64,000 nucleotides of DNA, taken from the IMG/VR virus record IMGVR_UViG_2850796239_000011, positions 29,227 through 93,226 of that record. One strand, 5' to 3'. Below are positions 6,079 through 30,275 of the stretch, piece after piece (position 1 is the first letter of the stretch; every line of letters starts with the position of its first letter). The stretch is from a virus. Its lineage: Duplodnaviria; Heunggongvirae; Uroviricota; Caudoviricetes. The position numbers and the translations under genes were made by a program. The notes under the pieces are model-generated. The model did no database searches, was not told the DNA's origin, and worked only from the letters and a program-made list of their open reading frames with translations.

Positions 6079-6079
6079 C

Positions 6080-6637: not shown

Positions 6638-6656
6638 AAATTACCCGTAAACATCG

Positions 6657-7837: not shown

Positions 7838-7847
7838 ATCACCACCA

Positions 7848-8825: not shown

Positions 8826-8852
8826 CCAGATACAAAATACAAAAAGAAACCT

Positions 8853-8886
8853 AAGTATCAAAAACACTTGCAACACCTTGATACTT
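8853..8886. promoter_or_regulatory. Operator-like inverted repeat AAGTATCAA-N16-TTGATACTT (OL-like)
   Basis: Perfect 9-bp arms read from sequence, immediately downstream of cI and upstream of 8928 gene. Confidence 0.45.
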
Positions 8887-8927
8887 TAGTTACCATAAAA
8901 CAAAGTTCGTAACTGAGGTATCATCTC

Positions 8928-9377: not shown

Positions 9378-9579
9378 GTTTGCCCCTTATCTCGCGAAGC
9401 TCTTCTACGGAAGAACCAATACCAATGGTGACATAATCGCCGCTTCGGCCCTCAAGGTACATGCGAACATTTTTATCAATCATTGCGGAAACAGTCTCAA
9501 TATGAAAACACTTCTGAGACTCGCTATATAGCAGAACATATAAGTCAGCTGAGGAAGCCATGAAAAAGTTCGAAAACAT
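9319..9579 (-). CDS. Hypothetical protein (86 aa)
   Basis: ORF with RBS GGAGA 6 nt upstream; start overlaps divergent start of 9560 gene. Confidence 0.35.
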   Translation of the reverse strand: MFSNFFMASSADLYVLLYSESQKCFHIETVSAMIDKNVRMYLEGRSGDYVTIGIGSSVEELREIRGKLIEMRHGVAAPHFLVAPEE

Positions 9580-9925
9580 AACTGTTCTCCATGTTGATGA
9601 CTTTGATTATACAAACCCGGAACTTCTCCCGGAGGTTGTAAAGGCAATAGATGTTGCCGATATAGTGATTAGAGGAAAGAGAATTGTCAAAAACAGGCTC
9701 GCATGCACTTCAGGAGCAATGACAGAAACAACCTCACAGCAAGATAATTACGAAGGCATTTGTCTGGAGCCTGATTCATTTGCGGTAAATGTTTATCATT
9801 TATTGCATGCAACACAGGTATTACATATGTCCAGTAACCTCGTAACGAAAGCACTTGGCAGCGATATTCTGGACTTTGCATGTGAGTATTCAAAAGCTGC
9901 TGCCGAAAAAGAATTAGCGCAATAA
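9560..9925 (+). CDS. Hypothetical protein (121 aa)
   Basis: RBS AGGAAG; no recognised family. Confidence 0.5.
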   Translation: MKKFENITVLHVDDFDYTNPELLPEVVKAIDVADIVIRGKRIVKNRLACTSGAMTETTSQQDNYEGICLEPDSFAVNVYHLLHATQVLHMSSNLVTKALGSDILDFACEYSKAAAEKELAQ

Positions 9926-10120
9926 CAACAAATATGCCCTGAACGTTTATTGCGGTTTTATCACCGGGGATTGTTACAACCTTAATCCACAGGAGGCTTT
10001 ATTATGACTTTTATAAAGAATATGGCATCACACAAGACCGCCAGCCTTATTGCACAATACGGTGAAAATTACATGCATATTGCCTGCTTATTTCTGCGTA
10101 AAGCATACGGGAAATAACAA

Positions 10121-10480
10121 ATGACACATGAACCCATTAATACATATCGTCGCCGTATAGCTGTTGCGGCACTCCATCGAATAAAACGTAAAACAGGTGG
10201 TGATCTGCTTATTGTTGACCTTCTGGATGGGAACATTACGACCATAGAAATAACAGAACAGTTTATAAACCAGTTGCTGTTGCGCTTTGAAGGTATTACC
10301 CGTGGTGAATTGGGTCGAGTGGAGGGTGAAACAGAAATCCGAACTGCATACCAGAATGCTATCGGGATTAATCAACATACTGAATACCAGGCTGAAACCG
10401 GAAAGTTAATTATAGACAACCTTTTACAAGAGGTTATTGATTACGCGAAAGAAAAATATATCAGAGGAGGAATTAACTGA
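10121..10480 (+). CDS. Hypothetical protein (119 aa)
   Basis: Preceded by a 37-aa ORF (10004..10117) with RBS GGAGG; stop overlaps next start. Confidence 0.5.
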   Translation: MTHEPINTYRRRIAVAALHRIKRKTGGDLLIVDLLDGNITTIEITEQFINQLLLRFEGITRGELGRVEGETEIRTAYQNAIGINQHTEYQAETGKLIIDNLLQEVIDYAKEKYIRGGIN

Positions 10481-10567
10481 TGGCTAATTTATCCCCTGTA
10501 TCTGTTGTGCACGAAAAAGTGCAGTGAGGTGTACTGGCAATAGCGGACACTACCATTTGTTCTTTTT

Positions 10568-11386
10568 TTAAGCAGCCATCTGATGATATTTTTCCCTGAA
10601 GGCTGCCGGGGAGATATTCCCCAGACGAGAGTGACGACGCTGACGATTGTAGAAAATCTCAATGTATTCCCGTATTACTGAGATGGCTTCATCCCGGTTA
10701 TTAAAACGATAGTGGCTCAGGCTCTCATTTTTCAGCGTTCCCCAGAAGCTTTCCATCGGAGCGTTGTCGTAACAGTTACCTTTACGCGACATTGATGTTT
10801 TCAGACCAGACTGCTCCTGTATGACCCGGTAATCGTATGCGCAGTACTGTGAACCTCGATCAGAGTGGTGGATTAGCCCGGCAGGTGGGCGCTGGCTCCT
10901 GAGCGCCATAAACAGGGCTTTACCTGTCAGCTCTTTTGTCATGCGCTCTCCCATGGCGTAGCCGACAATTTCGCACGTATAAACATCTTTGATGCCAGCG
11001 AGGTACAACCATCCCTCCTGTGTGGCAACATACGTCAGGTCCGCCACCCAGACCTGATTTGGTGCTGTAGGAGCGAACGTCTGGTTCAGCAGATTTGGCG
11101 CAACTGGCAGATTGTGGTTCGGGTTCGTAGTCGCTCTGAACTTGCGTTTCTGCTTACAGCGTAGCCTTAGCTCCTTACGAAGACGTGCCAGTCGGTCACG
11201 ACCAACGATGATGCCATTCTCTGCCAGCTCCGTCTGGAGCCGCCGGGTTCCATATGTTTCGCGAGTGCGGATATGTGCCACCTTAATCTCCAGTTTTAGC
11301 CGCTCATCACTTTGTTTTCTGTCTGAGGGTTCATGCTGTACCCAGTTGTAATAACCGCTCCTGGATACACCAAATACCTGACACAT
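10568..11386 (-). CDS. IS600 transposase OrfB (DDE domain)
   Basis: 272 aa, IS3-family catalytic core. Confidence 0.9.
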   Translation of the reverse strand: MCQVFGVSRSGYYNWVQHEPSDRKQSDERLKLEIKVAHIRTRETYGTRRLQTELAENGIIVGRDRLARLRKELRLRCKQKRKFRATTNPNHNLPVAPNLLNQTFAPTAPNQVWVADLTYVATQEGWLYLAGIKDVYTCEIVGYAMGERMTKELTGKALFMALRSQRPPAGLIHHSDRGSQYCAYDYRVIQEQSGLKTSMSRKGNCYDNAPMESFWGTLKNESLSHYRFNNRDEAISVIREYIEIFYNRQRRHSRLGNISPAAFREKYHQMAA

Positions 11387-11421
11387 CGCTTCAATGGGAA
11401 ATTGTTGTCGCCATTGTTCGA

Positions 11422-11724
11422 TTAACGCGTATTTTTCAGCGACTCCTGTGCAAAATACGCTGTTGCTTTTTTTAATATATCTCGCTCAAGGCGAGCTTCA
11501 TTTAACGCCTTACGCAGTTGCAGAATTTCAGATTCCAGTTCAGCCACCGTGCGGGAACCAGGAGTACCGAGCCCTTTTCTGGCGGCGGTAACCCATTGTC
11601 CTAAAGTGCCTTCAGGAAGGGATAATCGGGAAGCGCCTTCACTGATCGAAAGTTGATTTTCAAGAACCGTTCTGACAGCTTCGGCTTTGAACTCTTTAGA
11701 GTAACGTTGGGTTTTTCTGCTCAT
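11422..11724 (-). CDS. IS600 OrfA (HTH)
   Basis: 100 aa, MSRKTQRYSKEFKAEAV..., leucine zipper. Confidence 0.9.
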   Translation of the reverse strand: MSRKTQRYSKEFKAEAVRTVLENQLSISEGASRLSLPEGTLGQWVTAARKGLGTPGSRTVAELESEILQLRKALNEARLERDILKKATAYFAQESLKNTR

Positions 11725-12296
11725 TATTAGCTCCTTCTGATGCCATTCTATTTCAGGAAGGAGTGTCCGTTAAACTCAGGCTACCTCACAGATCGTTATG
11801 ACAATTGAAAATGGCCAGGTAACAGATGTCTGCAAAGTCCGCGATGGAGAGCTGATTGCCAGCATGGATACATTCATACGGCTGGCAGAAAGAGCGGGGT
11901 ATCAGATAACAGCACCTGCTCAGGAGGAAACCAGTGACATTAACAGCAACACGAATTCCTGAGTGGGTCCACCAGCAGGCGTTGCTGGTCCTGCGGCGGT
12001 ACAGATGCCGACGTATATTCCCGCATCGGATACAGCGCAACGGATATCTCAGTCTGAAGGTTAACCGTCGCTGGCGGCTGTTATCGAAAGACGACGGCCG
12101 GAACTGGGAAGTAATGAGTCATGAACGTTATTCGGGGGAAATAAAGAAATGATCGACAACCGCACCGCCAGCGCCATTGACCAGGCATTACAGAAACATG
12201 ATACACCCGTCGGCCCGTTATTTTTTGTAACACGCCACGGAAGAACAAAAAAAATGCCTCACCCGAAAAACGGCAATTCGTTACCTGGCATTCTTT

Positions 12297-12542
12297 ATGA
12301 CCACCCGCGCTTTTGAACGTTCAGGATTCCGACAACGCCATCCTGACAAGCGTTTTATCTTCAACGGGAATGAGATATGGAAACGTGGAGAATCAACCAC
12401 AGAGTATACCCGCGCACACCAGCGAACAATCAGACGACTGCGCAGACTCATCGCCAGGAAACAGTATACAGAAAAATGGTTCAGAAAATATGACACATGG
12501 AGCGCCGGATATTACGAACTGATGGCAACAAAACCATTCTGA
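12297..12542 (+). CDS. Hypothetical small protein (81 aa)
   Basis: One of several small same-strand ORFs (also 11934..12152, 12149..12322). Confidence 0.3.
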   Translation: MTTRAFERSGFRQRHPDKRFIFNGNEIWKRGESTTEYTRAHQRTIRRLRRLIARKQYTEKWFRKYDTWSAGYYELMATKPF

Positions 12543-12602
12543 CGTAAACGAAATTAACCATGACGCAATTAAATAAGGCAAGCCGAATACATCAGGAGGA
12601 CC

Positions 12603-12791
12603 ATGAACATTTATTTCAGAATAGTTATATCACTGGCAATTATCGCATGTATTTACGGATTAATCGTTCCGGCCCTCATATCAATGAAGGATACGGTAGC
12701 AGTGATTTCTGGCTTTGCTCTGGCGTGTCTGACCCCGCCCTGCATTTATGCCATTTATAAGGGTCTTTCTTTCCCCGGGAGGGAAAAATGA
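12603..12791 (+). CDS. Small hydrophobic membrane protein (62 aa)
   Basis: Hydrophobic sequence; stop overlaps start of SPFH gene. Confidence 0.45.
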   Translation: MNIYFRIVISLAIIACIYGLIVPALISMKDTVAVISGFALACLTPPCIYAIYKGLSFPGREK

Positions 12792-13016
12792 AAAAAACAA
12801 TTGCGCTTGTTTTCGCGGTCAGTCTGGCTGTCTTCGGACTTGTAGGTTGCGATCGCGTTGAACCAGGTAATGTGGGTATCAAAGTCAACAAACTGGGCGA
12901 CGACAAAGGTGTCGGTGAAGTGGTCGGTGTTGGTCGCTACTGGACTGGCTGGAATACTGAAGTGAACCGCCCCGGGAATCCTGGAGACTAAACTTCCTGA
13001 GAAAGAGGTAAACAGG

Positions 13017-13342
13017 ATGACTAAAAATACTCGTTTTTCCCCGAAGTCCGTCAGAGGGCGATTCGTATGGTTCTGGAAAGTCAGGGCGAATATGACTCAC
13101 AGTGGGCGGCAATTTGTTCCATTGCCCCAAAGATTGGCTGTACACCGGAGACTCTGCGTGTCCGGGTACGCCAGCATGAGCGGGATACCGGAGGCGGTGA
13201 TGGCGGGCTCACCACCGCTGAACGTCAGCGTCTGAAAGAGCTGGAACGTGAAAATCGTGAACTGCGCCGCAGTAACGATATCCTTCGCCAGGCTTCCGCT
13301 TATTTTGCGAAGGCGGAGTTCGACCGCCTCTGGAAAAAATAA
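13017..13342 (+). pseudogene. IS629 orfA with frameshift in a C4 run
   Basis: Translation leaves the OrfA frame after MTKNTRFSP at CCCC 13039..13042 and resumes at 13067. Confidence 0.6.
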
Positions 13343-14229
13343 TGCCACTGCTGGATAAGCTGCGTGAGCAGTACGGGGTCGGACCGCTATGCAGCGAACT
13401 GCATATTGCCCCGTCAACGTATTACCACTGTCAGCAACAGCGACATCATCCGGATAAACGCAGTGCCCGTGCGCAGCGCGATGAGTGGCTGAAGAAAGAG
13501 ATACAGCGCGTATACGATGAAAATCACAAGGTATACGGTGTGCGTAAAGTCTGGCGTCAGTTGTTACGGGAAGGTATCAGAGTGGCCAGATGCACTGTGG
13601 CACGTCTCATGGCGGTTATGGGACTTGCCGGTGTTCTCCGGGGTAAAAAGGTCCGTACGACCATCAGCCGGAAAGCCGTTGCCGCAGGCGACCGCGTAAA
13701 CCGTCAGTTCGTGGCAGAACGACCTGACCAGCTGTGGGTGGCTGATTTTACTTACGTCAGCACATGGCAGGGCTTCGTCTATGTGGCGTTCATCATTGAT
13801 GTGTTTGCCGGATACATCGTGGGGTGGCGGGTCTCATCGTCCATGGACACGACATTCGTGCTGGATGCACTGGAGCAGGCGTTATGGGCCCGTCGACCGT
13901 CCGGCACGGTCCATCACAGTGATAAAGGTTCTCAGTATGTATCGCTGGGCTACACACAGCGGCTTAAGGAAGCCGGATTACTGGCATCAACAGGAAGTAC
14001 AGGCGACTCGTATGACAACGCGATGGCGGAGAGCATCAATGGTCTTTACAAAGCGGAGGTAATACACCGTAAGAGCTGGAAAAACCGTGCAGAAGTGGAA
14101 CTGGCCACACTCACGTGGGTGGACTGGTATAACAATCGACGATTGCTGGAAAGGCTGGGCCATACTCCTCCGGCAGAAGCAGAAAAAGCTTATTATGCTT
14201 CCATCGGAAACGATGATCTGGCAGCCTGA
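13342..14229 (+). CDS. IS629 transposase OrfB
   Basis: 295 aa, DDE transposase. Confidence 0.9.
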   Translation: MPLLDKLREQYGVGPLCSELHIAPSTYYHCQQQRHHPDKRSARAQRDEWLKKEIQRVYDENHKVYGVRKVWRQLLREGIRVARCTVARLMAVMGLAGVLRGKKVRTTISRKAVAAGDRVNRQFVAERPDQLWVADFTYVSTWQGFVYVAFIIDVFAGYIVGWRVSSSMDTTFVLDALEQALWARRPSGTVHHSDKGSQYVSLGYTQRLKEAGLLASTGSTGDSYDNAMAESINGLYKAEVIHRKSWKNRAEVELATLTWVDWYNNRRLLERLGHTPPAEAEKAYYASIGNDDLAA

Positions 14230-14965
14230 GTTCACAGATAAAACACTCTCCAGGAAAACCGGGGCGGTTCAGAAGTTTACATTTTCCCGACCTTCAAGCA
14301 AATGAAGACCTACGATGAACCGTTCAGTTTCCAGATGAGTGACGGCACAACCATCGGCTATCACATCGGCGTGGCCTACAAAGTTGATCCATCCAAAGTT
14401 ACCACAGTCTTTCAGACTTACCGCAAAGGCGTGGATGACATTACCGACACTGACCTGCGCCAGAAAATTGCCGACGCACTCAATCGGCTGGCCAGCAAAA
14501 TGACCACTGACAAATTTATCGACGGCGGCAAGTCTGAACTACTGGATGCCGCACTTAAAGACATTCAGGAAGAGATGACACCCATCGGCATTCAGGTAAT
14601 GAGCCTCTCTTATGTAGGTAAACCGGAATACCCTCCAACCGTTATCGACAGCATTAACGCCAAAGTCACGGCAAACCAGAAAACCCTGCAGCGCGAACAG
14701 GAAGTCAAGCAACGTGAAGCGGAGGCCAACATGCTACGTGCGGAAGCTGCCGGACAGGCTGATGCCATTCGAACAAAAGCCCAGGCAGAAGCCGATGCCA
14801 TTCGTTTACGCGGCGAAGCTCTACGCCAGAACCCAGGCGTCATGGAGCTGGAAGCCATCAACAAGTGGAACGGTACACTGCCGCAATACATGACCAGTGG
14901 TGCCAATACACCATTTATCCAGATTAAATAACTTATATGCCCGGCAGGCCGCCGGGCTAAGGGAA

Positions 14966-15295
14966 ATGCAGATGAACACCCAGAATACTCAACCGCAAAT
15001 AATGAACTATGACCCGAATCTGACGTCATGCGGACGCATGGCAAAACAAACCGTTCGATTAACTTTCGGACTATGGGAATACCGCGAAACATTCGAAGTT
15101 ACTGTCGGCGGCAATCTGACCGGACTGGATGTTATCAGTTGCGCTATTGAAAGCCTGTACGCAACGCTGCCTTATGAAGAAGTCGAGGATGAGCGCACAG
15201 GGGAAACAGATATCATGGCCACCATTAATATTGGCGAACTGATATGTCAGGATGAAGACCTGTCCGGAGAGCTCTGGCTTGCCGGGATGCTTTGA
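14966..15295 (+). CDS. Hypothetical protein, 3' end interrupted by IS600
   Basis: Stop codon is the first TGA of the IS600 end; frame continues after the IS to ~16608. Confidence 0.45.
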   Translation: MQMNTQNTQPQIMNYDPNLTSCGRMAKQTVRLTFGLWEYRETFEVTVGGNLTGLDVISCAIESLYATLPYEEVEDERTGETDIMATINIGELICQDEDLSGELWLAGML

Positions 15296-15356
15296 GGTAG
15301 CCTGAGTTTAACGGACACTCCTTCCTGAAATAGAATGGCATCAGAAGGAGCTAATA

Positions 15357-15659
15357 ATGAGCAGAAAAACCCAACGTTACTCTAAAGAGTTCAAAGCCGA
15401 AGCTGTCAGAACGGTTCTTGAAAATTAACTTTCGATCAGTGAAGGCGCTTCCCGATTATCCCTTCCTGAAGGCACTTTAGGACAATGGGTTACCGCCGCC
15501 AGAAAAGGGCTCGGTACTCCTGGTTCCCGCACGGTGGCTGAACTGGAATCTGAAATTCTGCAACTGCGTAAGGCGTTAAATGAAGCTCGCCTTGAGCGAG
15601 ATATATTAAAAAAAGCAACAGCGTATTTTGCACAGGAGTCGCTGAAAAATACGCGTTAA
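15357..15659 (+). pseudogene. IS600 orfA with nonsense codon (Gln24 to stop)
   Basis: GAA AAT TAA at 15420..15428 versus CAA in copies 1 and 3. Confidence 0.8.
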
Positions 15660-15694
15660 TCGAACAATGGCGACAACAATTTCCCATTGAAGCG

Positions 15695-16513
15695 ATGTGT
15701 CAGGTATTTGGTGTATCCAGGAGCGGTTATTACAACTGGGTACAGCATGAACCCTCAGACAGAAAACAAAGTGATGAGCGGCTAAAACTGGAGATTAAGG
15801 TGGCACATATCCGCACTCGCGAAACATATGGAACCCGGCGGCTCCAGACGGAGCTGGCAGAGAATGGCATCATCGTTGGTCGTGACCGACTGGCACGTCT
15901 TCGTAAGGAGCTAAGGCTACGCTGTAAGCAGAAACGCAAGTTCAGAGCGACTACGAACTCGAACCACAATCTGCCAGTTGCGCCAAATCTGCTGAACCAG
16001 ACGTTCGCTCCTACAGCACCAAATCAGGTCTGGGTGGCGGACCTGACGTATGTTGCCACACAGGAGGGATGGTTGTACCTCGCTGGCATCAAAGATGTTT
16101 ATACGTGCGAAATTGTCGGCTACGCCATGGGAGAGCGCATGACAAAAGAGCTGACAGGTAAAGCCCTGTTTATGGCGCTCAGGAGCCAGCGCCCACCTGC
16201 CGGGCTAATCCACCACTCTGATCGAGGTTCACAGTACTGCGCATACGATTACCGGGTCATACAGGAGCAGTTTGGTCTGAAAACATCAATGTCGCGTAAA
16301 GGTAACTGTTACGACAACGCTCCGATGGAAAGCTTCTGGGGAACGCTGAAAAATGAGAGCCTGAGCCACTATCGTTTTAATAACCGGGATGAAGCCATCT
16401 CAGTAATACGGGAATACATTGAGATTTTCTACAATCGTCAGCGTCGTCACTCTCGTCTGGGGAATATCTCCCCGGCAGCCTTCAGGGAAAAATATCATCA
16501 GATGGCTGCTTAA
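15695..16513 (+). CDS. IS600 transposase OrfB
   Basis: 272 aa, near-identical to other copies. Confidence 0.9.
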   Translation: MCQVFGVSRSGYYNWVQHEPSDRKQSDERLKLEIKVAHIRTRETYGTRRLQTELAENGIIVGRDRLARLRKELRLRCKQKRKFRATTNSNHNLPVAPNLLNQTFAPTAPNQVWVADLTYVATQEGWLYLAGIKDVYTCEIVGYAMGERMTKELTGKALFMALRSQRPPAGLIHHSDRGSQYCAYDYRVIQEQFGLKTSMSRKGNCYDNAPMESFWGTLKNESLSHYRFNNRDEAISVIREYIEIFYNRQRRHSRLGNISPAAFREKYHQMAA

Positions 16514-16641
16514 AAAAAGAACAAATGGTAGTGTCCGCTATTGCCAGTACACCTCACTTATCTCAGCAGAAATTATCAGTATTGAACCCGCTACAAACAT
16601 ACGGCTCTGAAGTTCTCACTATTCAGAGAGCAGGAGAAAAA

Positions 16642-16884
16642 ATGTTCGCTTTGATTAATCAGGGACAACTGTATACCGACAGTGCCGGTTACCCGGTAAA
16701 AATTATTCGCTGCATAAACAACACTGTGTTGTACAGAAGAATGGATGGGCGAACACAGTCAGTAAAAATAAACGATTTCAATGAACTGTTTGAACGGATC
16801 GATCACCAGGAATACCGACAAATTCTGGCAGAAACAGAGCAGGAAGCTCATCTGAAAAAATTACGGGCCATGAAAAGGAAGTAA
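16642..16884 (+). CDS. Hypothetical phage protein (80 aa)
   Basis: RBS AGGAG; followed by a 48-aa ORF at 16888..17034. Confidence 0.45.
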   Translation: MFALINQGQLYTDSAGYPVKIIRCINNTVLYRRMDGRTQSVKINDFNELFERIDHQEYRQILAETEQEAHLKKLRAMKRK

Positions 16885-17042
16885 AGAATGAATAAAGCGT
16901 TTGAGCTATGGGTACGCCAGCGTTACGGCAATCGCTATGACCTGACGCGAGATGTTGACGGTTTCTACTGTCGTGAAATTGTGAAACGAATGTTTGAAGT
17001 GTGGTGCCACTGCCGTGGGCTGAGTGTTGTGTGAGGTAATGC

Positions 17043-17279
17043 ATGGGCAATGTGATTCAACTGGCTCCCAATGAATGGGTTTGTGAAAGCGTTCTTATCG
17101 CAATTACCGGGCTCAAACCAGGCACAATTCTCCGAGCCCGGAAAGAATGCTGGATGGTAGGAAGAGAGTATATTCACGTATCACCAGACGGTAATCCAAA
17201 GCCATCCAGCGAATGTATGTATAACAGAAAAGCAATAGATGCCTGGGTCTCTTCAATGAAAAACAAACAACCTGGGTGA
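17043..17279 (+). CDS. Excisionase-like DNA-binding protein
   Basis: 78 aa, immediately upstream of integrase; recalled excisionase-like pattern. Confidence 0.65.
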   Translation: MGNVIQLAPNEWVCESVLIAITGLKPGTILRARKECWMVGREYIHVSPDGNPKPSSECMYNRKAIDAWVSSMKNKQPG

Positions 17280-17334
17280 TTTAATGCCATGAAGTATGTA
17301 AGCTCGTATCGCTCTTGGGCGTCTGGAGGTATCA

Positions 17335-18648
17335 ATGGATAAAGTCAAATATCCAACAGGCGTCGAAAACCACGGTGGCACATTACGCATCTGGTTTAAT
17401 TTTAAAGGTAAACGTGTCAGGGAAAATCTTGGTGTCCCTGACACTGCCAAGAACAGGAAGATCGCCGGAGAGCTGCGGACATCTGTATGTTTTGCCATTC
17501 GTACAGGAAATTTTGATTATGCTGCGCAGTTCCCTGACTCTCCTAACCTCAAGGCTTTTGGGGTAAATAAAAAAGAAATTACGGTGAAAGAACTTGAAGA
17601 AAAATGGCTGGATCTGAAACGAATGGAAATCTCTGCAAATGCATTCAATCGCTATGAATCCATTGCAAGGATGATGGTTCCGAAGATTGGTGGCAACCGA
17701 CTGGTATCAGCAGTGACCAAAGAGGAATTGCTGTATATCAGGAAAGATTTGCTGACCGGATACCAAAATCCAACAAAAGGTAAAGCTCCAGTAAAAGGAC
17801 GAAGCGTTGTCACAGTAAATTATTACATGACAACAATCGCTGGAATGTTTCAGTTTGCTGCAGATCACGGTTACATAGAAGCAAATCCCTTCGAGGGAAT
17901 TAAGCCTCTTAAAAGAGCCAGGGCAGAACCAGATCCGCTAACTCGTGACGAATTTATTCGCCTGATAGATGCTTGCCGGCATCAGCAGACAAAAAACCTG
18001 TGGTCATTGGCTGTGTACACAGGAATGCGTCATGGTGAACTGGTCTCCCTGGCCTGGGAAGATATCGATCTGAAAGCAGGAACAATTACTATCAGGCGCA
18101 ATTATACGAAACTCGGTGAGTTCACTCTACCTAAAACTGAAGCAAGTACAAACAGGGTTGTGCATCTTATCCAGCCCGCTATCAGTGTCCTGAAAAATCA
18201 GGCTGAAATGACAAGACTGGGTAAGCAGCACAACATCAAGGTTCAACTACGTGAATATGGACGTTCAGTAAATCATGAATGTACTTTCGTATTTAACCCC
18301 CAGGTGGTTAGAAAAAGCAAACAGGTAGGTTTTATCTACAAGGTAGATTCCATTGGCGACTCATGGGAAACAGCCATTAAACGTGCAGGCATCAGGCATC
18401 GAAAGGCATACCAGTCACGACACACTTATGCGTGCTGGTCATTATCTGCCGGAGCAAATCCAAGCTTCATTGCCAGCCAGATGGGGCATGCAAGTGCCCA
18501 GATGGTGTTCAATGTATACGGAGCATGGATGACTGACAGCAATGCAGAACAGATCGCAATGCTGAATCAGAAGCTGGCAGATTATGTCCCAATGATGTCC
18601 CATGGTCACCAAAGTGACACAAGAGGCTTATTAAAATCAGTGAGTTAG
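17335..18648 (+). CDS. Tyrosine integrase (437 aa)
   Basis: Arm-binding N-terminus and C-terminal catalytic region with R...HxxR...Y context. Confidence 0.9.
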   Translation: MDKVKYPTGVENHGGTLRIWFNFKGKRVRENLGVPDTAKNRKIAGELRTSVCFAIRTGNFDYAAQFPDSPNLKAFGVNKKEITVKELEEKWLDLKRMEISANAFNRYESIARMMVPKIGGNRLVSAVTKEELLYIRKDLLTGYQNPTKGKAPVKGRSVVTVNYYMTTIAGMFQFAADHGYIEANPFEGIKPLKRARAEPDPLTRDEFIRLIDACRHQQTKNLWSLAVYTGMRHGELVSLAWEDIDLKAGTITIRRNYTKLGEFTLPKTEASTNRVVHLIQPAISVLKNQAEMTRLGKQHNIKVQLREYGRSVNHECTFVFNPQVVRKSKQVGFIYKVDSIGDSWETAIKRAGIRHRKAYQSRHTYACWSLSAGANPSFIASQMGHASAQMVFNVYGAWMTDSNAEQIAMLNQKLADYVPMMSHGHQSDTRGLLKSVS

Positions 18649-18751
18649 CTTTTAATACCCGTCATGTTAACTGTTAATGAGGGCATTGAGTCGGGGGCTG
18701 GCAGCATACTGCGCAAGCACAGTGGCAGCCACATTCTGCACGTTATGCCTC

Positions 18752-19984
18752 CTAGAGTTTCACACTGATATCCGACACATCCAGAACCGGAATCTCATCT
18801 ATCCCGAAAGTGACAGCCGTTGTCCATGACGAACCGTCACGGCTCACAGTAAGGCCCAGAATATCAATATGTTCCGGATCGGTTTTGTAAATGCCGGCAT
18901 AGTAGCGCCCGGCAGAGACAACAGAGGCAACCCTTGCCCGCAGACCACCATCTGTACCATTAAATGCGTCCAGCACGGATTGCTGTACCTGTCGGGTAAT
19001 ATCTGAAGGCAGGTAGTCACTTTTTTTCAGCGTCACACTGACATGCAGACTGACGGGTTTGAGTGTCTGCCAGCTGATCACGTATTCAGGATACGGCGGA
19101 TCGTACTCCTTATCTGCAACAGTGAACGTTGTGTTGCCATTCATATCAATACCCGGCGGAGCCTTACGCCAGATGGCCGCCGCGATATCTGCCGGGCTGC
19201 CGCCGTACACGCCAACATAAAGCGAACCGGGTGTTAATGGATACTGACTGACTCCGGCTTTTTGTTCTGTTTTTTTCGGATTATGGGTGACGTAAACATC
19301 CACCACGTTTTCTACCGTGGAGAGTATTTCACCCCGGATGGCTTCCAGAATATTCCGGGCATTACGGGCAACTGAATTACGTCGGCGGTTTTCAAAGTCC
19401 GCACGGGTTTCCTCATCGCTGCCCGGCACACCGGCACTGGCGTTAGTGACACCTGACCAGCCAGGTATTGCCTTATAAATTTTATTCAGCGTCCCCACAG
19501 GACAGCCGACGGGGCCGGTGGACAAATTCAGAAATACCGCATCAACCTGCCCTGATGCGCCGATAGTGACGTCTGACTGACTGACATACTTATAACCGGC
19601 CTCATCCTGCGCCATACTGCCCGCCGGGATCAGCGTGCCAACCAGCCCGGTACAGGTCGCTGTTACTGTCGTACCTGTGGCCCCGCGGCGCTCCAGGAAA
19701 TAAATCCTGCCTATTGCATCCTGAAAGCGACCACTGGAAAAGTCAGGGTTGATCTGGTTAACGATATACAGCAACTGGTCGTTTTTATCCGCAATAATGG
19801 CGCTTTCGCTGGATGCAAGTTGTCCCTGCGGACTGCTCAGACTGGTACTCATGGCCCCGCCCAGCGCCGCCGAAAAATCAGCAAGCCTGCCGCTCAGAAT
19901 ATCCGCTTCATCCGGCACATTCAGCCCGCGATCCGAAATCTGTACAGCGGGCACTGCGGTAGAAAAAGATTTATTTTCACTCAT
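18752..19984 (-). CDS. Baseplate J-like protein (Mu gp47 family)
   Basis: 410 aa; gene order sheath-tube-tape measure-baseplate. Confidence 0.7.
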   Translation of the reverse strand: MSENKSFSTAVPAVQISDRGLNVPDEADILSGRLADFSAALGGAMSTSLSSPQGQLASSESAIIADKNDQLLYIVNQINPDFSSGRFQDAIGRIYFLERRGATGTTVTATCTGLVGTLIPAGSMAQDEAGYKYVSQSDVTIGASGQVDAVFLNLSTGPVGCPVGTLNKIYKAIPGWSGVTNASAGVPGSDEETRADFENRRRNSVARNARNILEAIRGEILSTVENVVDVYVTHNPKKTEQKAGVSQYPLTPGSLYVGVYGGSPADIAAAIWRKAPPGIDMNGNTTFTVADKEYDPPYPEYVISWQTLKPVSLHVSVTLKKSDYLPSDITRQVQQSVLDAFNGTDGGLRARVASVVSAGRYYAGIYKTDPEHIDILGLTVSRDGSSWTTAVTFGIDEIPVLDVSDISVKL

Positions 19985-20337
19985 AGCAATACCGTAAAAA
20001 TGTCATTATTGGTATCTGTAATACGCAGCACACCTGTTACTGTCCGGGTTTGATCAGCTGTGACCTGGCAGACAGCGGCGCTCACGGTCGGCAGTTTAAG
20101 TGCTTCCTGTTGCAGAGTGGCATTCACCAGTTGTGTGCCGGGCCAGTGTCCGAGGATGCGTGGCCAGTAAGGTATGCCAGCCGTTGAGTCGTACCAGCAC
20201 TCCCCCAGAAAAGTACTGCACGCACACGCCACATCCTGAGCTACCGCATGGGGATTATCAGTAATGGCAAGATTTCCGGTATCATCAAGCAGGATATCCC
20301 ATGTCCCGGTGTCAAGAAGAAGTGATCGTGACTGCAT
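19981..20337 (-). CDS. Baseplate protein (Mu gp46-like)
   Basis: 118 aa, overlaps neighbours. Confidence 0.6.
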   Translation of the reverse strand: MQSRSLLLDTGTWDILLDDTGNLAITDNPHAVAQDVACACSTFLGECWYDSTAGIPYWPRILGHWPGTQLVNATLQQEALKLPTVSAAVCQVTADQTRTVTGVLRITDTNNDIFTVLL

Positions 20338-20349
20338 GTTTTCTCCTGT

Positions 20350-21027
20350 TTACCGGGGTCCCTGCGTGGTTGAGCCGCCGGACTCAACGCCGCCGTGAAC
20401 GTGGTTTCCAAAATCAATACCCCCGATGTTCGAACCGCCGGAAAGCCTGGACTGCCCGGTAACGTCAAGCCCCTTACTGACGGCGGTATCGCCGTTCAGC
20501 GCAATTTGTGGTGAATTAACGGTGAAGCTTTTCGGCGCATTAATCACACCCTCAGGCGCGGATATCTCCACTTTCCAGGGAGATACAATCCGTATCTGGT
20601 TGTCATCAAATACCACAAACTGGACGGGATCACCGTTGAGCACGCCACCCAGCCAGATGGCATCAGCATAATTATGGGTACGCTTTGATCCCGGCATCGC
20701 AGCCTGACGCGTGGCTTTTACCGCACTGATATCCCGATCGCAGATGGCAAGAAAACCGATATCCCCCACATGTGGCGGCATAATCACCGCATTACCGCCC
20801 CCCTGTAGTCGCCATACGGGAATGTTATAAATCACCTCATGTTCAACCGGGGAACCGTCTGCTGCAACGCCCATTACCATCGGTCGGGCCTCAATAAATC
20901 CCTCTTCCACGGCTACCACCCGTCCCAGAGTGATAAACGCATGACGTCCGAGAAACTGCCGCAGCATAAAGTCCTGTGCATTGATTTCGCTGTTCACGTC
21001 TGTCGGGTTACTGAGTGGTTGTGCCAT
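20350..21027 (-). CDS. Baseplate assembly protein V-like (spike)
   Basis: 225 aa; Gly-rich C-terminus. Confidence 0.6.
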   Translation of the reverse strand: MAQPLSNPTDVNSEINAQDFMLRQFLGRHAFITLGRVVAVEEGFIEARPMVMGVAADGSPVEHEVIYNIPVWRLQGGGNAVIMPPHVGDIGFLAICDRDISAVKATRQAAMPGSKRTHNYADAIWLGGVLNGDPVQFVVFDDNQIRIVSPWKVEISAPEGVINAPKSFTVNSPQIALNGDTAVSKGLDVTGQSRLSGGSNIGGIDFGNHVHGGVESGGSTTQGPR

Positions 21028-21877
21028 TTTCTTCAGCCCTCATCATGGTACAGTTGGAACTCCACGGACCGCCCACGGTTCGCGAAGTAATGGTGTGTAT
21101 CACCCCTGTGATCGTATAATCGCCCGTCATATCAGGCAGTGACGATTCCAGATGCGCTGGCCTGCCAGTAAAGAGATCGGGGCAGAATATCGTGGTGGCG
21201 CTGAGTCCGGTCATGGTGTAAACCGGATAGCCAGTCAGTCCGTGATCCGGCGAAATCAGTACCGGCGGAATATTCCGGTTCTGCCCTTTCGGCCAGATGG
21301 TGACTTTCTCCACATTCCCCAGATCAATGTTAATATCGGCGGCTGAAGCGACATCCAGCATTTGTTGTACAACATTACCGGAAAAATGCGGGTCAGACAG
21401 ACTGCGGCTGACCCCCTGGTTTTCAAATCCAAGCCCGACAGTTGACGCCAGCGCACGGATAATATCTGCAACCGCAACATCGCCCTTTGCGCTGAAATCT
21501 GCCGCCGGCTGATTACGCAGATTAAAATGAATCTGTCCTGTCAGAATGAGCGGAATATCCGGCGCCTGGTTGTAGTCGGCGTATGCATCAGTAATATCAC
21601 CTTCAAAAATAAGCCGCCCGTCGGCCCACAGCCGCATTTTATTTGCGGTACTCTGCTCCTGTCGCCACACACCGCGCCAGCTTAAATTCGTCATATGCGC
21701 CGGTGACATTCCCCAGATATACAGCGTGATTTGTGTACCAGCCACCCCTCCATATACGCCAATACTGGCAAAACAGCTTGCGTCGGTAATGGTCAGCATA
21801 TTGCCCTGGCCATTACCAAACGTTCGTCCGTCTGAAAGAGTGAACTCCACCGTTATTTTACGTTGTCTGTAGCTCAT
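21008..21877 (-). CDS. Baseplate hub/tail protein
   Basis: 289 aa, position. Confidence 0.5.
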
Positions 21878-22176
21878 ATCAGTTCCTCAGGTAACAGCCA
21901 GTAGAGCCGGTACCGGGATCCGAGCCCCCGCCAGTCAGGGTCACTATTCCCCTCCGTGTCGGTAAAAAACAGGTCCCCCTGAAACGGCAGGTATCCGTAC
22001 CGGACAATCCGGTTATTATTCAGACACAGCACGCCATACAGGCACGGTTCACCATTAACAATGATATCGATATACATCCCCGTAGTACGCTGATTCAGGC
22101 GAATGGTGCAGACCTGAGCGCCCAGTGTCACCGTAAACTGCTGGGCTTTAACGGGAGATAAAACAATTTCCAGCAT
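21874..22176 (-). CDS. Hypothetical tail protein (100 aa)
   Basis: Operon position. Confidence 0.4.
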
Positions 22177-22886
22177 CAGGTGATCCCCCTGTTCGTGGCG
22201 CTTCGTCTGTCAGCGTCTGACGGTTGTGTCACCGACGCCGTAACTGACTGCGTTTTAACCGATGCGGCCCCTTTTGCTTTATCGTTGTCCGTGGGAGACG
22301 ACTTATCCGTACTTCCCACTGACACCTCTCCTGTATTCATTACGGTCTGAAATACCGCAGTAACCGTCAGTAAGGTCGGACCATTATTACTTCGCATTCG
22401 GTAGTCATATTTCACAAGGTCGCAGGATGTCCATGTCTTGTCCGGCGTCTCAATATCGTAGAGTCCTGCCGTGGTACGCATCCTTTCAAGCGTTTCCAGC
22501 ACATTCGTCCGCGAGGTGGTGGAAAAATTTGTCAGGTTCGGGACGGATCCGGAAAAGGCCGTCCACCCCTCTACAGTGAAAGTCACATGCAGTTCCGGCG
22601 ATCTCTGGATTTTATTAAAGGTGGTATAAGCCCCCTGCTCCACGGGGACGGTGGAAACAGAAGCCTCCGCGCCCACCTCAACGACAACAAAAGAATCCGG
22701 GGAGAAAGGTTTGCCACCCTTCTGATGGGCACCTGCCGGATCATTCCGTGCGTAATAAATACCGAATGACGGTGCCAGTACACTGTTAATGAGTCCCAGG
22801 ACACCGCCGCCACGAACTGCACTCAGTACGTTACTTTCACTGAGCGAAAAGTTATTCAGGGAAATATTATCGAAAGAAAAACTCAT
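22176..22886 (-). CDS. Tail protein (236 aa)
   Basis: Operon position downstream of tape measure. Confidence 0.5.
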
Positions 22887-24373
22887 CCTGTTACCCCGCT
22901 GGAATAAACCGACACAAGCGCCGAATTCGTGATACGCCGACGTGCGTCATCGGTAATACCCTTCACATTGTCCGACGTTGTGGTGACATTCAGTGTCCCG
23001 ATATGCGTGGTTTCCGTTACGGTGGACTGCGATACAGGCGCAGGATGGCGCGACCGTATGGCCATTGCCGCACCCGGATAAGGCAGGTTCGCCAGCACCC
23101 GCGGAATATAGTTGCGGGTCTCCTCCGGAGCAGCAGCCAGTCCCTTACGCTGAACATTTCCCTCTCCCCAGTTATATGCCGCCAGAGCCTTAGCCAGATC
23201 GCCATGAAAAAAACGTATCAGGCCACCAAGTTTTCTCGCGGCGGCATCAGCGGCTTTTTCGGGATCAAAGGCATCGTTCCCCTCAGACCAAATTCACTGG
23301 CCGTCTTCGGCATGAACTGAAACAGTCCCATCGCACCAGCAGGTGAGACGGCAAACTGATTACCACGGGATTCGGTGATCGCAACGCTGCGCAGCAGTCC
23401 GGGCGGCAGGTTATATTTTTCCTCCAGTTGAGACAGTTTCGGTTGCAGCCAGCCTAACAGGGCTTCCCCGGTCTTCGTCGGTCGCTGGCGGTTTTGCATG
23501 GCATTACCGAGTTTTTCCTGCGTCGCACGCATACCCTGTAGCCAGGATTCACCGAAGGCTGCTTCCCTCCCGGTTGCCTGAGAAGCCTGAGTATCCAGCA
23601 TGCCCTGCTGCCATACTGTGGGTGATTGTGCCCGGGTGATGTTGCCAGGCTTTTCTCCGGCATCCAGTTTTGTCTGATACGTCTCCATCTCTTTCTTATT
23701 GAAAAAGAAAGTCCCGTCTGAAGCCCAGAAAAAACCATGTGAATCCAGCCAGTCCTTATTTTCCCTGCCAACAATGGATGTCAGTAATCCGTCAACAACC
23801 GGGTAAAGCGCCGTTATCGCAAAAAGAAGGCCTCCGGGGCCACTGAGGGCTTTTGTCAGCCCCCCGCACCCATGACGCCACTTTCAGCCCGATCAGCGTA
23901 ATAATGGCATTCTGCCAGCCCCCCAGTTCTCCGGCAGCCTTATTCGCCAGGGAGGCCACTGACTCAACGTCATTCAGAAATGTGGTGATAAACCTGTTCA
24001 CTTCCTCCGGATGTTGCTGCATCCAGTCACCGAGTGTCTCCAGCCAGTGGCTGAGCTTCAGCGCGTACGGCATCAACGCGGTGCTAATCGTCATCCCGAT
24101 GCCGGACCAGGTCTGATCGAGCTCAACAAGCTCTTTTCGTAGCTTACGGGCCAGCGCTATACGCCCCGGCGTAACCTGCGAACGGGAAGTAAATTCGTCC
24201 ACATCTTTCAGCGCATGACCGGAGCCAAGAAACTGCTGTCCGGCATAACTGAAGCCCAGCGCGTTGCCGTAGGCAGTTTGTTCGGACTTTGTCAGTCGCG
24301 GAAAAATAACCGCCAGCTTGCGCATGATGGCTTCAGTGCTGTCAGTATTTAAATCAACACTAGGCTGTGTCCC

Positions 24374-24889
24374 TTAATTACGTAAGCGTTGATAAAAGAG
24401 TCGGATGCAGCCCAGTTTCACCATCGCCAGGTAATTTCTCGCCGTTTTGTCGTAACGCGTGGCGATGCGGCGATATTCTTTCAGCCGCCCAAAGCACCGT
24501 TCAACGACATTACGATTGCGGTACGCATCACGATCAAGCTGTGCACGTCCATCCGATGCCATTTTCTCATTTGACTTTCGGGGGATTACTGCCTTTATAC
24601 CGTTATTTTTCAGCTCGTTGCGCAATGCGCGCCCTGAATACGCTTTATCAGCCAGTACCGCATGTCCACGGCGTTTCATGCTGCCGTTCTGACGCTGAAC
24701 GCCAATCCCGTCCAGAAGTCGTTGCGCGAACTGGCTTTCATGAGCTTGTCCGGGGCTTAGCACGATATTTAACGGGAGGCCACTTCCGTCTGTTGCCAGA
24801 TGGATTTTGGTGCCAAAACCGCCGCGAGAGCGACCCAGCCCATTATCTCCGTCGATATCGGGATGTTTTTTTGAGCACCGGCGGCACAT
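24374..24889 (-). CDS. IS5-family transposase OrfB (DDE part)
   Basis: Downstream overlapping frame; intact in this copy. Confidence 0.7.
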   Translation of the reverse strand: MCRRCSKKHPDIDGDNGLGRSRGGFGTKIHLATDGSGLPLNIVLSPGQAHESQFAQRLLDGIGVQRQNGSMKRRGHAVLADKAYSGRALRNELKNNGIKAVIPRKSNEKMASDGRAQLDRDAYRNRNVVERCFGRLKEYRRIATRYDKTARNYLAMVKLGCIRLFYQRLRN

Positions 24890-25218
24890 TTCAGCGCCCG
24901 GATATTACTGCCATCCAGCGCGGTGGCAGACCAGTCAATAAAGCCGTTTGCATCAAGTAGCGAAAGCAACCTGTTGAAAATAATATTAATCACGCCTGAC
25001 TTTGACCATCGGTTAAAGCGGTTATAAACAGTTTTCCATGACCCATATCGTTCGGGTAAATCGCGCCATGGTGCACCGGAACATAACACCCAGAACATGC
25101 CATTGATGATTTTACGGTGCTCAGCCCATGGGCGTCCGGCCCGTGGTGTGGCGGGTTCAGGAGGTAACAGGGGCTTGATGATGGTCCATGCCTCATCGGG
25201 AAGGTCGTAGCGAGCCAT
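24769..25218 (-). CDS. IS5-family transposase OrfA
   Basis: LPDEAW...GRP...WRDLPERYGSWKTVYNRFNRW motif. Confidence 0.8.
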   Translation of the reverse strand: MARYDLPDEAWTIIKPLLPPEPATPRAGRPWAEHRKIINGMFWVLCSGAPWRDLPERYGSWKTVYNRFNRWSKSGVINIIFNRLLSLLDANGFIDWSATALDGSNIRALKCAAGAQKNIPISTEIMGWVALAAVLAPKSIWQQTEVASR

Positions 25219-26029
25219 AGTTCAATATGTTGTGTAAACAGACAGTTACTATAGCTCAGATGATTAAGGGACACAGCCTAATGCCCGCCCTGGCTGCAAC
25301 CTGAAACAAATCCTGTAACACAGGATCAAAGGACCTTCCGGCTCTGAAGGCCGCTTTTGCATTTGCAAGCCGGGAAAATGCCCCAGACATTTCCCCTTCA
25401 TCAACATTATTTGCCCGCGCAGCCCGTAACCATCCGTCCAGATTTCTGGCCTTCATGCCAAAAGCATCAGATTCCACGGACAGACGGTTCAGATCACGGG
25501 CAAAACCTGTTACCAGGTTCTTCAGCCCCCCCAGCGTCAGACTGACACCCGCAAGAGCCAGAATCTCGCTACGGATCCCTGAAAAAAAACGGGACGCCCG
25601 TTTCCCGGCATCTTCCATTCGACGGGCCGTTTTATCAGCATCTTTTCCGGTTTTTTCCAGTGATTCACTGGTTTTCTTCTGTCCCTGACTGAATGTGTCA
25701 GCGACACCTTCCATCACCGTCGTGAGCCGGTTAAGGGCAGCATGTACTGCCTGTTCCCCGGCAGTAAAGTCCCTGTCATCAATCCCGAGGGACAGAACAA
25801 GCTCATCAAGTACCTGCGCCATTTCTGTTCTCCTGTATCACCTGTTCGTTATGGGCATCCACATGAATTATTTCCAGCAGATCCCATAAGTCCTGCACAC
25901 CAAGGACAGAATCCAGTTCAGCTTTTGAAGCCTTACCGGAGGAGATAACGGTCGCAATGGTACGGGGAACATTAACGTAATCCACCACCCCGAACGGTCT
26001 GTCGGGGTCGAGATAACGCGGGGGGATAT

Positions 26030-26434
26030 CTAGCTGACGACGGTAGCGAAAAAATCCACATGCAGCTTAAAGACCTCCGCACGCAGATTAAGACGGGTAA
26101 TGATTTCTTCAATATCCTCTTCAACAAGCGGTCTCCGGATGCTGCGTTTTTTCGGATCGGGAACAAACTGCACACAGTCCATCATTTCATCCATCAACGG
26201 ACGCGCCTCATCAGGCGGAATTTTCGATAATGCTTTCAGCCCTTCAAGGGCAAGCGCAGCCATCCCCAGACTACGAACATCATCCGGTAACTCCACGCCA
26301 CCACGCCCCATTGCCATAATGGCACGCATCGCCCACCATTCCGCCTGTAAGGCAGACATTTCGGTAAGATGAAATACCTTGCCCTTATCCCGTCCCTGAC
26401 CTTCAATAGTGATAAATTTCTCTTTACGGGCCAT
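26030..26434 (-). CDS. Putative tail assembly chaperone
   Basis: 134 aa between tube and tape measure. Confidence 0.45.
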   Translation of the reverse strand: MARKEKFITIEGQGRDKGKVFHLTEMSALQAEWWAMRAIMAMGRGGVELPDDVRSLGMAALALEGLKALSKIPPDEARPLMDEMMDCVQFVPDPKKRSIRRPLVEEDIEEIITRLNLRAEVFKLHVDFFATVVS

Positions 26435-26880
26435 CAGTTAAAAACCTCCGGAGTAATGGTTTCCCACTCAATAACCGCCTGCCCTGGCTGCAACGTACGA
26501 GCTGCATCAGGCAGCGCTTTCCATTGTTTGAGTACGCCATTCACGCAGGTATATTTACGGCCAATCGCCGGAAGCAGGACGACAGCGTTACAACGGAATA
26601 CAGCCCGACTGGCCCGGGATGTGGTTGACCAGGTATCAAAAATATCCCGGCTGGGGGAATCCGGCATGATATGAAACGTCTGGATAATGTTGCTGTACAC
26701 AAATCCCGCGGACAGTTTACCGTCAATACCGCGGGCAGTTTCCGCCAGTACCAGTGGATCGGTGCCATAAACGTTATCTGTTGCAAATCCCTGAAGTCGT
26801 ACGCCGGAGGGATACAGATTATTCACTGTCAGCGTGATAATGGCATCCGCCGCAGTGATGGTGTTGTTGTTACCCGACAT
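26434..26880 (-). CDS. Tail tube protein
   Basis: 148 aa immediately downstream of sheath. Confidence 0.6.
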   Translation of the reverse strand: MSGNNNTITAADAIITLTVNNLYPSGVRLQGFATDNVYGTDPLVLAETARGIDGKLSAGFVYSNIIQTFHIMPDSPSRDIFDTWSTTSRASRAVFRCNAVVLLPAIGRKYTCVNGVLKQWKALPDAARTLQPGQAVIEWETITPEVFN

Positions 26881-28365
26881 TTACTGGACCTCCGTGGATG
26901 CAATAACAAGTTTCTGGATACTACCGCCGTCACAGTACCAGAGCGTACAGGACGGACTGCTACGGGTTGCCCGCAAAGAGGGAAGCATATCGCCGATATA
27001 CAGGTAATAGCCGGTGGCAAACAACGTTGAAGAAACATCTGCCCCCACAACATTGTTAATCTGTTTCTTCTGCGCCTCCGTCAGTGTCACCCCTTCACGG
27101 ATCCCTCCCCAGCGTTTGTACTGCTGGATAACGTCACTCATTGACGCTGCAACCAGCGCCCGCCCTTCATTGTTGTAGGGGATCGTCTGGTTTGACTTGA
27201 ATAACGCGATCACCGCCCCCTGCAAACTGGCATTCAGCCAGATTTGCCCGCAGAAACTGTCCAGCCATTTAAAATCACCGGTAATAGTGCCATCCGCCCA
27301 GTAATCTTCCACCACACTGTTTTCCGCATATTTTCCGTAGAAATTGTAACCTGCGGCGATCAGCGCATCATAATCGCTGCCACTGGTAACATCAGCGGCC
27401 AGCCCCTCATACTCGCGGAACTTGAATGATACACGCCCCTCTGGTCGGACAAAATCAAGGCACGCTGCATACCCCAGTACCGCTGCAGCCCGGTTACCAT
27501 CAGTCGCGAAAACAGGTACAACAGAGCTGTAGTTATTGACAGCAATTATCTGGTAAGCGATGTGTTTAGTACTGCCTTTTACTCTGGCGTTGCCGCTGGT
27601 TGTCCATGCCACATAAAAGTAACGCTTGCCCTGCCCGTTTGCCCATGCAGAAAACGCCAGGTGTTGCTCGTCAGTGACCTCAGATACCGTGGAAAAACCC
27701 GCCCATTGCTGGGAAGCGGCCTTAATGGCTGCCATTGTGTCAGGGACATCAGATACAGGCGCGCCCCGGGATATCACCGCACCGGTGTTACTGGTCATCT
27801 TCAGGAGTTCTGCTGCCGATCCACTGCCGAACGTTATCGTGGTACTCCCGGGTTTCGCACCGGCGACAGTAATGACAAAAGCATTCTGTGTGGTATCGAA
27901 TACCACTGTAGCCACTGCTGCGGTCAGCGCTGTCTGTAGTGCCGTTGCAGCAGCGGCGAAGCTGGCGACACCGTTAAAATTCACTTCAATGCTGACGCTT
28001 TTCCCGTTAATACTCAGCATCAGCGTGCCGGAAAGTTTTTGTAGCTGTTCAACAGTCGCGCCCTTAAACGAACCGCTACGTAACCAGGCCGCCGATGGGG
28101 CAGGACTGAAACGGGAAAACAACAATTGCCCCGGCGTCCTGGTGGCATTTTTGAAGCCCTGGAAATAAAGCTGAGCGCGTGCGTACTCATCGGATAATGC
28201 ACCAAAATACGCGGCCACATCATCCGGAGAGGAAAACGGAACCACAGTGCCGACCGGAAGTAACGGATTACTGGTCAACAGCAGGCCGTTAAGATCAACG
28301 GCATTACCCGCCACAGCCAGCACACCGGGATTTATCTGTACATCTTTACTGAGTGGAATTGGCAT
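26881..28365 (-). CDS. Tail sheath protein
   Basis: 494 aa, position and size. Confidence 0.75.
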
Positions 28366-30270: not shown

Positions 30271-30275
30271 AGCGT

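Follow-up and report, generated by a model that had tools for sequence, protein, structure and literature searches.

A hybrid attachment sequence at the junction of two convergent prophages in Shigella: a candidate scar of integrase action at a secondary site

Two convergent prophages

The stretch of DNA analysed here (the window, 64,000 nucleotides) contains parts of two prophages, which converge on a spacer of 103 bases (18649-18751). On the plus strand, the right-hand part of a lambdoid prophage (prophage 1) runs into the spacer with its excisionase and integrase genes; on the minus strand, the late module of a second element (prophage 2) runs into it from the other side with a gene for baseplate protein J. 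A preliminary description of this locus had placed the end of the integrase gene at 18648 and the convergent end of a baseplate J-like gene at 18752; both were confirmed by the ORFs and by domain matches, the Baseplate_J ORF occupying 18752-19984 (minus strand). The features of the locus, together with the sequences compared at the junction, are collected in Table 1.

Table 1. Features of the two prophages and of their junction (window coordinates)
Feature	Coordinates	Strand	Description
Prophage 1, right-hand part	1..18673	+	Lambdoid, ipaH-carrying type; Q, replication, immunity, xis, int
IS600 copies in prophage 1	10525..11788 and 15293-16556	- (first copy)	Source genome only; absent from L004 and L008
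IS3-family element, 1308 bp	12964..14271	+	Within Band_7/SPFH gene; transposase domains rve, HTH_21
Excisionase-family gene, 78 aa	17043..17279	+	PF06806 (L006 9709-9945, +7334); annotated excisionase in phiP27 and E. coli records
Tyrosine integrase, 437 aa, heterobivalent, intact	17335..18648	+	Arm-DNA-bind_2 E 4.6e-24; Phage_integrase E 2.9e-18
P-arm end of attL	18649..18666	+	CCCGTCA (18658-18664), then 2-nt spacer TG
TTAACTG	18667..18673	+	First 7 bp of 11-bp att core TTAACTGCGTG
DUF2612 (Phage_Wedge1) 5' remnant	18667..18741	-	GTG start 18741-18739; 24 native codons to 18670
Prophage 2	18674..62670	-	At lambda attB beside ybhC; truncated inside DUF2612
Baseplate J gene, prophage 2	18752..19984	-	PF04865 match; 410 aa
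Lambda-type att core, ybhC side	62657..62670	+	Lambda attL, B-O-P', here reversed P'-O-B; sole prophage 2 att site in window
phiP27 attL			Reads ...CCCGTCATG TTAACTGCGTG; last 11 bp annotated att core
attL at yecE			Reads ...CCCGTCATGTTAACTGCGTGGAGGGCAAC...
Intact DUF2612, same strand			Reads ...GCGCTGCGTTAAAGCTGTTAATGAGGGCATTG...
Window junction			Reads ...CCCGTCATGTTAACTGTTAATGAGGGCATTG...

The usual site of prophage 1 is yecE, and its int/att module is of the phiP27 type. Window positions 1213-18673 align with positions 5-13795 of phiP27 at 93% identity; over 17000-18673, which covers int-xis and the P arm, the DNA identity to phiP27 is 96.4%. Positions 5570-18673 are 99.5-100% identical to a prophage resident at yecE (L004). 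The part of prophage 1 to the left of the window could be followed in L028, which reaches 8.5 kb further, ends in the portal gene and carries lysis, terminase and portal genes. The exact 437-aa integrase protein occurs in 132 blocks of the collection and adjoins yecE in most of the contexts shown. An equivalent of the complete element, 48 kb long, is present in the enteroinvasive E. coli (EIEC) FDAARGOS_944, where the order is yecD, the yecE 5' part, TTAACTGCGTG, DinI, ipaHd, a lambda-like tail, Q, int, TTAACTGCGTG and the yecE 3' part.

The yecE locus itself is a double hot spot: two genomes have a second element inserted at one and the same point, ~400 nt downstream from the phiP27-type core. 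In one of them (L004, 11341-19000) its first gene encodes a 507-aa large serine recombinase, and phage tail genes come next; in the other (L007, 11315-19300) it consists of an IS21-like pair and tail genes.

Prophage 2 combines lambda-type int/att and early genes with phage tRNAs and an E217/Pam3-like contractile-tail (myovirus) late module. Its int/att region is 98-99.5% identical to those of lambda and mEp332. The A-run of its att core counts five (TTAGTATAAAAAGC), against six in lambda; EIEC FDAARGOS_944 (L037) has the same variant, and the attR in L021 has six. This change sits in the core-binding part, outside the TTTATAC overlap. Between its Q and holin genes, prophage 2 has two tRNA genes (42452-42607), for tRNA-Thr(TGT) and tRNA-Asn(GTT), and the same pair is annotated in EIEC FDAARGOS_944. 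Prophage 2 has been inactivated further by two insertions: ~915 bp at about 24363-25277 with a DDE_Tnp_1 transposase fragment, which splits a 673-aa SLT-domain tail protein, and an IS600 at 37448-38712 in the head/terminase region.

At the end facing prophage 1, the tail module of prophage 2 is incomplete. The preliminary description had found no further baseplate or tail-fibre gene and no attR there, and we agree: beyond baseplate J only 24 codons of DUF2612 are left, with no further complete wedge, tail-fibre or tail-fibre-assembly gene, and the attR of prophage 2 is absent from the window. The full set of tail genes is present in L001, L021 and L026. A matching attR (P-O-B') was seen only in L021, between ipaH and ybhB.

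Anatomy of the 103-base spacer

The integrase ORF ends with TAG at 18646-18648. What follows is made of three parts: the P-arm end of an attL, TTAACTG, and the 5' remnant of DUF2612. The statement of the preliminary description that no att site lies between the prophages is thus not confirmed, as the spacer holds the P-arm end of attL, the first 7 bp of the 11-bp core (18667-18673) and the first 24 codons of DUF2612.

The extent of each parental sequence was determined by BLAST of positions 17000-20500 against E. coli genomes (n=5,426) and the phage collection. Up to 18673, the window matches the int-xis-attL end of phiP27 and yecE-resident prophages; from 18666-18671 on, it matches a contractile-tail prophage of enteroinvasive E. 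coli at 99.6-99.8%. No hit in the 5,426 E. coli genomes spanned the join. Positions 18649..18673 are identical to the P-O-B' junctions of yecE-resident prophages in L002, L004, L005, L007 and L009-L013. Identity to the yecE-resident attL reaches 18673 (...CATGTTAACTG), while identity to intact DUF2612 begins at CTGTTAATGAGG; the crossover is therefore confined to CTG (18671-18673), which is common to both parents and lies inside the 11-bp core.

This core, TTAACTGCGTG, is the annotated attL/attR of phiP27. Its surroundings in attP and attB suggest a lambda-like geometry: CCCGYCA, 2 nt, TTAACTG, 2 nt, TGRMGGG. The heptamer CCCGTCA in the P-arm end is a putative core-type Int binding site, to judge from the sequence; it has imperfect inverted partners (attP, reverse complement CCCGTATCA; attB CCCGCCA, reverse complement CCCTCCA). 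By the symmetry of this arrangement TTAACTG is predicted to be the 7-bp overlap region, in which case the attL-derived sequence stops exactly at the right edge of the overlap. A full attL of the phiP27/yecE type is not what the window contains: TTAACTG is followed by DUF2612 sequence, and the yecE 3' part does not adjoin. As to a second copy of the core in the window, the sole one-mismatch match to the 11 bp is remote from the junction and no better than expected by chance. No IS element and no longer homology was found at the junction. A different register of exchange, at the repeat TGTTAA, was considered and rejected; it would make the junction 7 nt shorter than the one seen.

The DUF2612 remnant encodes the peptide VQNVAATVLAQYAASPRLNALINS and ends at TAA (18669-18667), a stop codon supplied by the predicted att overlap. 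Intact DUF2612 has 201 aa in both L001 and L021 (PF11041, E 2.7e-65), and in the contractile-tail prophage of EIEC it normally follows baseplate J. The neighbouring baseplate J protein has 410 aa instead of 413: a CAG>TAG change at 18752-18754 cuts off the last three residues, the ancestral stop being at 18743-18745. The 410-aa variant occurs in four public contigs only, on three of which the integrase converges on it; the fourth stops immediately beyond what is left of DUF2612. The change is a handy marker of the lineage.

Genomes with the junction and genomes with the parental sites

The junction is a unique sequence, without a repeat, and it recurs. In Shigella dysenteriae CP026875.1 (GCA_002950355.1; L006), a complete sequence, 21,314 of 21,314 bases are identical to the window; S. 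boydii ATCC 9905 (L008, AERN01000089.1) has the junction base for base; and the integrase converges on the 410-aa baseplate J also in two short-read assemblies, GCA_012668945.1 and the Logan assembly of SRR3793777. An assembly artefact that joined two prophage contigs, for which only the general risk in IS-rich and prophage-rich genomes can be cited, is practically negligible in view of these occurrences. Misassembly, which the preliminary description had named as grounds for refutation, is thus countered by independent assemblies. Both parental sites are found unrecombined in one sister genome, GCA_900450175.1: P-O-B' at yecE (L004) and an intact copy (L021) of the DUF2612 site at which the window sequence breaks off, below called X.

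The L021 sequence shows what prophage 2 has lost. Its order is baseplate J, DUF2612 (201 aa), tail fibre (410 aa), an assembly protein (tfa), a 422-aa tail protein, DUF4376, ipaH (587 aa), attR, ybhB and bioA-bioBFCD, and it is 99.8% identical to window positions 18666-29067. With L021 as the reference, about 535 nt of DUF2612 and about 6 kb beyond it are missing from the window.

The insertion elements of prophage 1 give an order of events. The window, S. boydii ATCC 9905 and the yecE-resident L004 all carry the 1308-bp IS at one and the same position, and three other copies at yecE (L002, L005, L007) lack it. Since it is common to L004 and to the genomes with the junction, prophage 1 with this mark was resident at yecE prior to the event. 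The two IS600 copies are younger than the junction, since both are absent from the junction-bearing L008.

The orientation of the two halves differs between genomes. In EIEC FDAARGOS_944, prophage 1 from int to the core and the ybhC-side lambda-type prophage from int to the tail are both on the plus strand, ~1.2 Mb apart; in the window the halves are convergent, i.e. head-to-head relative to the K-12/EIEC order. Given co-oriented halves in that order, a one-step deletion is excluded, and a single inversion fits.

CP026875.1 has a second myovirus-tail remnant, beside sitABCD (L022, 3119204-3140436; also L023), in which DUF2612 and the 410-aa tail fibre P0124 are intact; L022 is 99.85% identical to window positions 18666-22773. 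As this paralogue at the sit locus keeps its DUF2612, site X is present at least twice in such genomes, and only the copy at lambda attB has recombined.

Origin of the junction and comparison with known systems

A breakpoint inside the 11-bp core, an intact cognate integrase next to it and the lack of an IS element or longer homology together point to catalysis by the integrase at a secondary site. On balance, and with some reserve, we favour the reading that the spacer is a hybrid att site, P-O-X', made by the integrase of prophage 1 from attL and X, with inversion as the simplest route. The tyrosine integrase would have recombined attL (P arm, TTAACTGCGTG, yecE) with a pseudo-att site X, which lies at codon 24 of the wedge gene DUF2612 in prophage 2, the latter residing at lambda attB, and the exchange would have taken place within the 7-bp overlap TTAACTG or at its edge. 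The window would have retained the P arm and the overlap, followed by the DUF2612 5' remnant, baseplate J and the remainder of prophage 2 up to its int and ybhC; the reciprocal product would have taken what remained of DUF2612, together with the tail-fibre genes, ipaH and the lambda-type attR. In the K-12/EIEC order ~1.2 Mb separates yecE from the lambda attB region, and the event would be a single Int-mediated chromosomal inversion between the two, probably in an ancestor that S. dysenteriae CP026875.1 shares with S. boydii ATCC 9905. Rearrangement has been extensive in Shigella chromosomes, and that the ancestral order was K-12-like is assumed, not proven. The inversion predicts GCGTTAAAGCTGCGTG followed by GAGGGCAACACC (yecE) elsewhere in the genomes with the junction.

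As a target for the integrase, X is a weak match: it shares CTG at the crossover, 4/7 positions of the overlap and 10/25 positions ungapped. A B'-like heptamer, GAGGGCA, is shifted by one base relative to the expected register; noticed post hoc, it is only suggestive. The weak similarity of X to attB (10/25), with 3 nt only in common at the crossover, would suit illegitimate recombination that owes nothing to the integrase, in which a CTG microhomology happened to be used at the end of the prophage. The chance that a random break in a prophage of ~48 kb falls within the 11 bp is about 2 in 10,000 by our estimate, and here the break lies moreover at the predicted edge of the overlap, with no IS element or longer homology at the junction; we therefore regard this explanation as very improbable and rank it last among the biological ones.

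The preliminary description had offered two origins for the fusion: either prophage 1 integrated into, or next to, the distal end of prophage 2, or a deletion brought the two together. That two prophages are fused and that prophage 2 lacks its distal end is borne out, L021 supplying the missing stretch. A simple deletion does not agree with a junction inside an att core or with convergent halves. The first origin is still live, though less likely than the inversion. The attP of prophage 1, excised from yecE or brought in by infection, would have recombined with the pseudo-attB X in DUF2612, so that prophage 1 is nested in prophage 2, with the remainder of DUF2612, tail fibres, ipaH, attR and ybhB beyond the left end of prophage 1; GCGTTAAAGCTGCGTG would then be followed by ATACGGGATTTTT (P' arm). 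Such an integration would give an identical P-O-X' junction, integration at secondary sites is a classical property of lambda Int (Shimada et al. 1975, as cited in PMC6379469), and left of the window prophage 1 seems to retain most of its full length. The sister lineage has this IS-marked prophage at yecE, so that excision would have had to be followed by re-integration at a very poor site when the preferred attB at yecE had just been regenerated. A weaker point is that no exact X-O-P' in-frame fusion protein (235, 215, 208 or 187 aa) was found in a collection of 15 billion proteins, in which alleles and gene calls may differ. Taken together, these points make the nested integration unlikely, and attL x X, leading to inversion, remains our preferred reading.

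The reciprocal junction expected from the inversion was searched for in several ways. The predicted X-O-B' string GCGCTGCGTTAAAGCTGCGTG was absent from viral, GTDB-representative and JGI metagenome contigs in exact-pattern scans, collections in which the window's own junction was likewise missing where tested (viral contigs). A synthetic X-O-B' query gave no spanning hit in 5,426 E. coli genomes. Exact look-up of DUF2612 fragments returned only two, of 120 and 115 aa, both on short contigs of other strains. No exact copy of the ipaH and tail proteins of the displaced end was found on the 5.16-Mb source contig, with the tail-fibre protein P0124 present once only, which suggests that this end has been mutated, pseudogenised or lost.

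Several candidates for the displaced material were rejected. The P0124 copy of the source genome belongs to the paralogous prophage remnant at the sit locus (L022), and P0131, a homologue of the tail fibre, belongs to another genome. A search of DUF2612 homologues for C-terminal fragments and chimeras returned P0010 (202 aa, on a Salmonella-like Logan contig), in which the first 28 residues of a sheath initiator are fused to DUF2612 from residue 26. This is an unrelated Salmonella fusion and not the reciprocal chimera: it implies a deletion of baseplate J and is unrelated to any att sequence, even with its fusion point two codons from the break in the window.

Neither the reciprocal junction nor the exact ipaH, tail-protein and tail-fibre sequences having been found in the source genome, an Int-mediated deletion comes into consideration, by which the DNA between the sites would have been lost and no reciprocal product would survive. 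Earlier rearrangements, of the kind for which IS elements are responsible in the heavily rearranged Shigella genomes, would have had to bring attL at yecE into direct orientation with the tail end of prophage 2, on the same arm. This requires an additional rearrangement that has not been observed. In the sister genome and in EIEC the order past yecE (yecN, cmoA, cmoB) and past ybhB (bioA, bioBFCD) is K-12-like, and the housekeeping genes yecN/cmoAB and ybhB/bio, which such a deletion would have removed, are unlikely to have been lost. We consider this deletion quite improbable, and the single inversion is preferred to it as well.

Most large rearrangements in Shigella and E. coli are attributed to IS elements or to homologous recombination between prophages. 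The junction described here is a clean natural case whose scar suggests that a phage integrase acted at a secondary site. In one event the wedge/tail-fibre/attR end of prophage 2 was removed and the attL of prophage 1 was spoiled by conversion to a hybrid. Both ipaH-effector prophages would thereby be locked in the chromosome (grounded), which offers one concrete route to prophage domestication. A more specific version can be put forward only tentatively: that the integrase of a resident, IS-damaged prophage acted on its attL and a pseudo-site ~1.2 Mb away, and that the resulting terminus-spanning inversion became fixed in the S. dysenteriae/boydii lineage, grounding the two ipaH-carrying prophages in a single step. 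Taken more soberly, the locus is a tidy and ordinary example of prophage immobilisation in Shigella. It also carries a warning for the prediction of prophage boundaries, as tools that rely on paired att repeats would merge or mis-call both elements.

A reaction of attL with a pseudo-site would resemble the 'straight-L' reaction of lambda, attL x attB. To our knowledge, that reaction has been described only in vitro, and for lambda. Among the closest known systems are phiP27 and other lambdoid (Stx) prophages that integrate at yecE: int-xis is 96% identical, and the P arm and the 11-bp core TTAACTGCGTG are the same. The Shigella/EIEC prophage differs from phiP27 in its late genes, which are of the lambda-like siphovirus type, and in carrying ipaHd instead of stx; in the window, moreover, the core is cut after 7 bp and yecE does not adjoin.

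With the secondary sites of lambda Int (Shimada, Weisberg and Gottesman, as presented in PMC6379469), the junction shares a heterobivalent integrase, partial identity to the core, a crossover in the core or overlap and a hybrid att left behind. Relative to that account, the partner here lies inside a structural gene of another prophage, the integrase is of the phiP27/yecE type, and the starting site was probably a resident attL and not attP. In lysogens of HK022, Int has been reported to promote inversion between an att site of the prophage and a secondary site (Dorgai, Oberto and Weisberg 1993, as cited in PMC6379469). According to that citation, the resident prophage's own Int acted there, too, on an att site and an inverted pseudo-site, with the result that the segment was inverted and the prophage irreversibly grounded. 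The HK022 secondary site, as cited, lay in the same prophage and the inversion was local, whereas X lies in a second prophage, ~1.2 Mb away in the K-12 order, and natural lineages of Shigella have the product in fixed form.

Homologous recombination between prophages or IS elements also causes large inversions that have prophages as end points, e.g. in E. coli O157 (Iguchi 2006, cited in PMC6379469); as cited, these depend on long homology, whereas here the parents share CTG only and the break is at an att core. Chromosomal inversions driven by an integrase are known also from Thermococcales, where the pTN3 integrase is responsible (PMC5495485). In both cases the integrase of a mobile element would produce inversions on the scale of the genome at non-canonical sites; the pTN3 enzyme is archaeal, with relaxed, homology-like specificity and frequent events, whereas we are dealing with one rare event and a conventional phage Int. 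Against this background, the event at the Shigella junction is a fresh instance of an already known kind.
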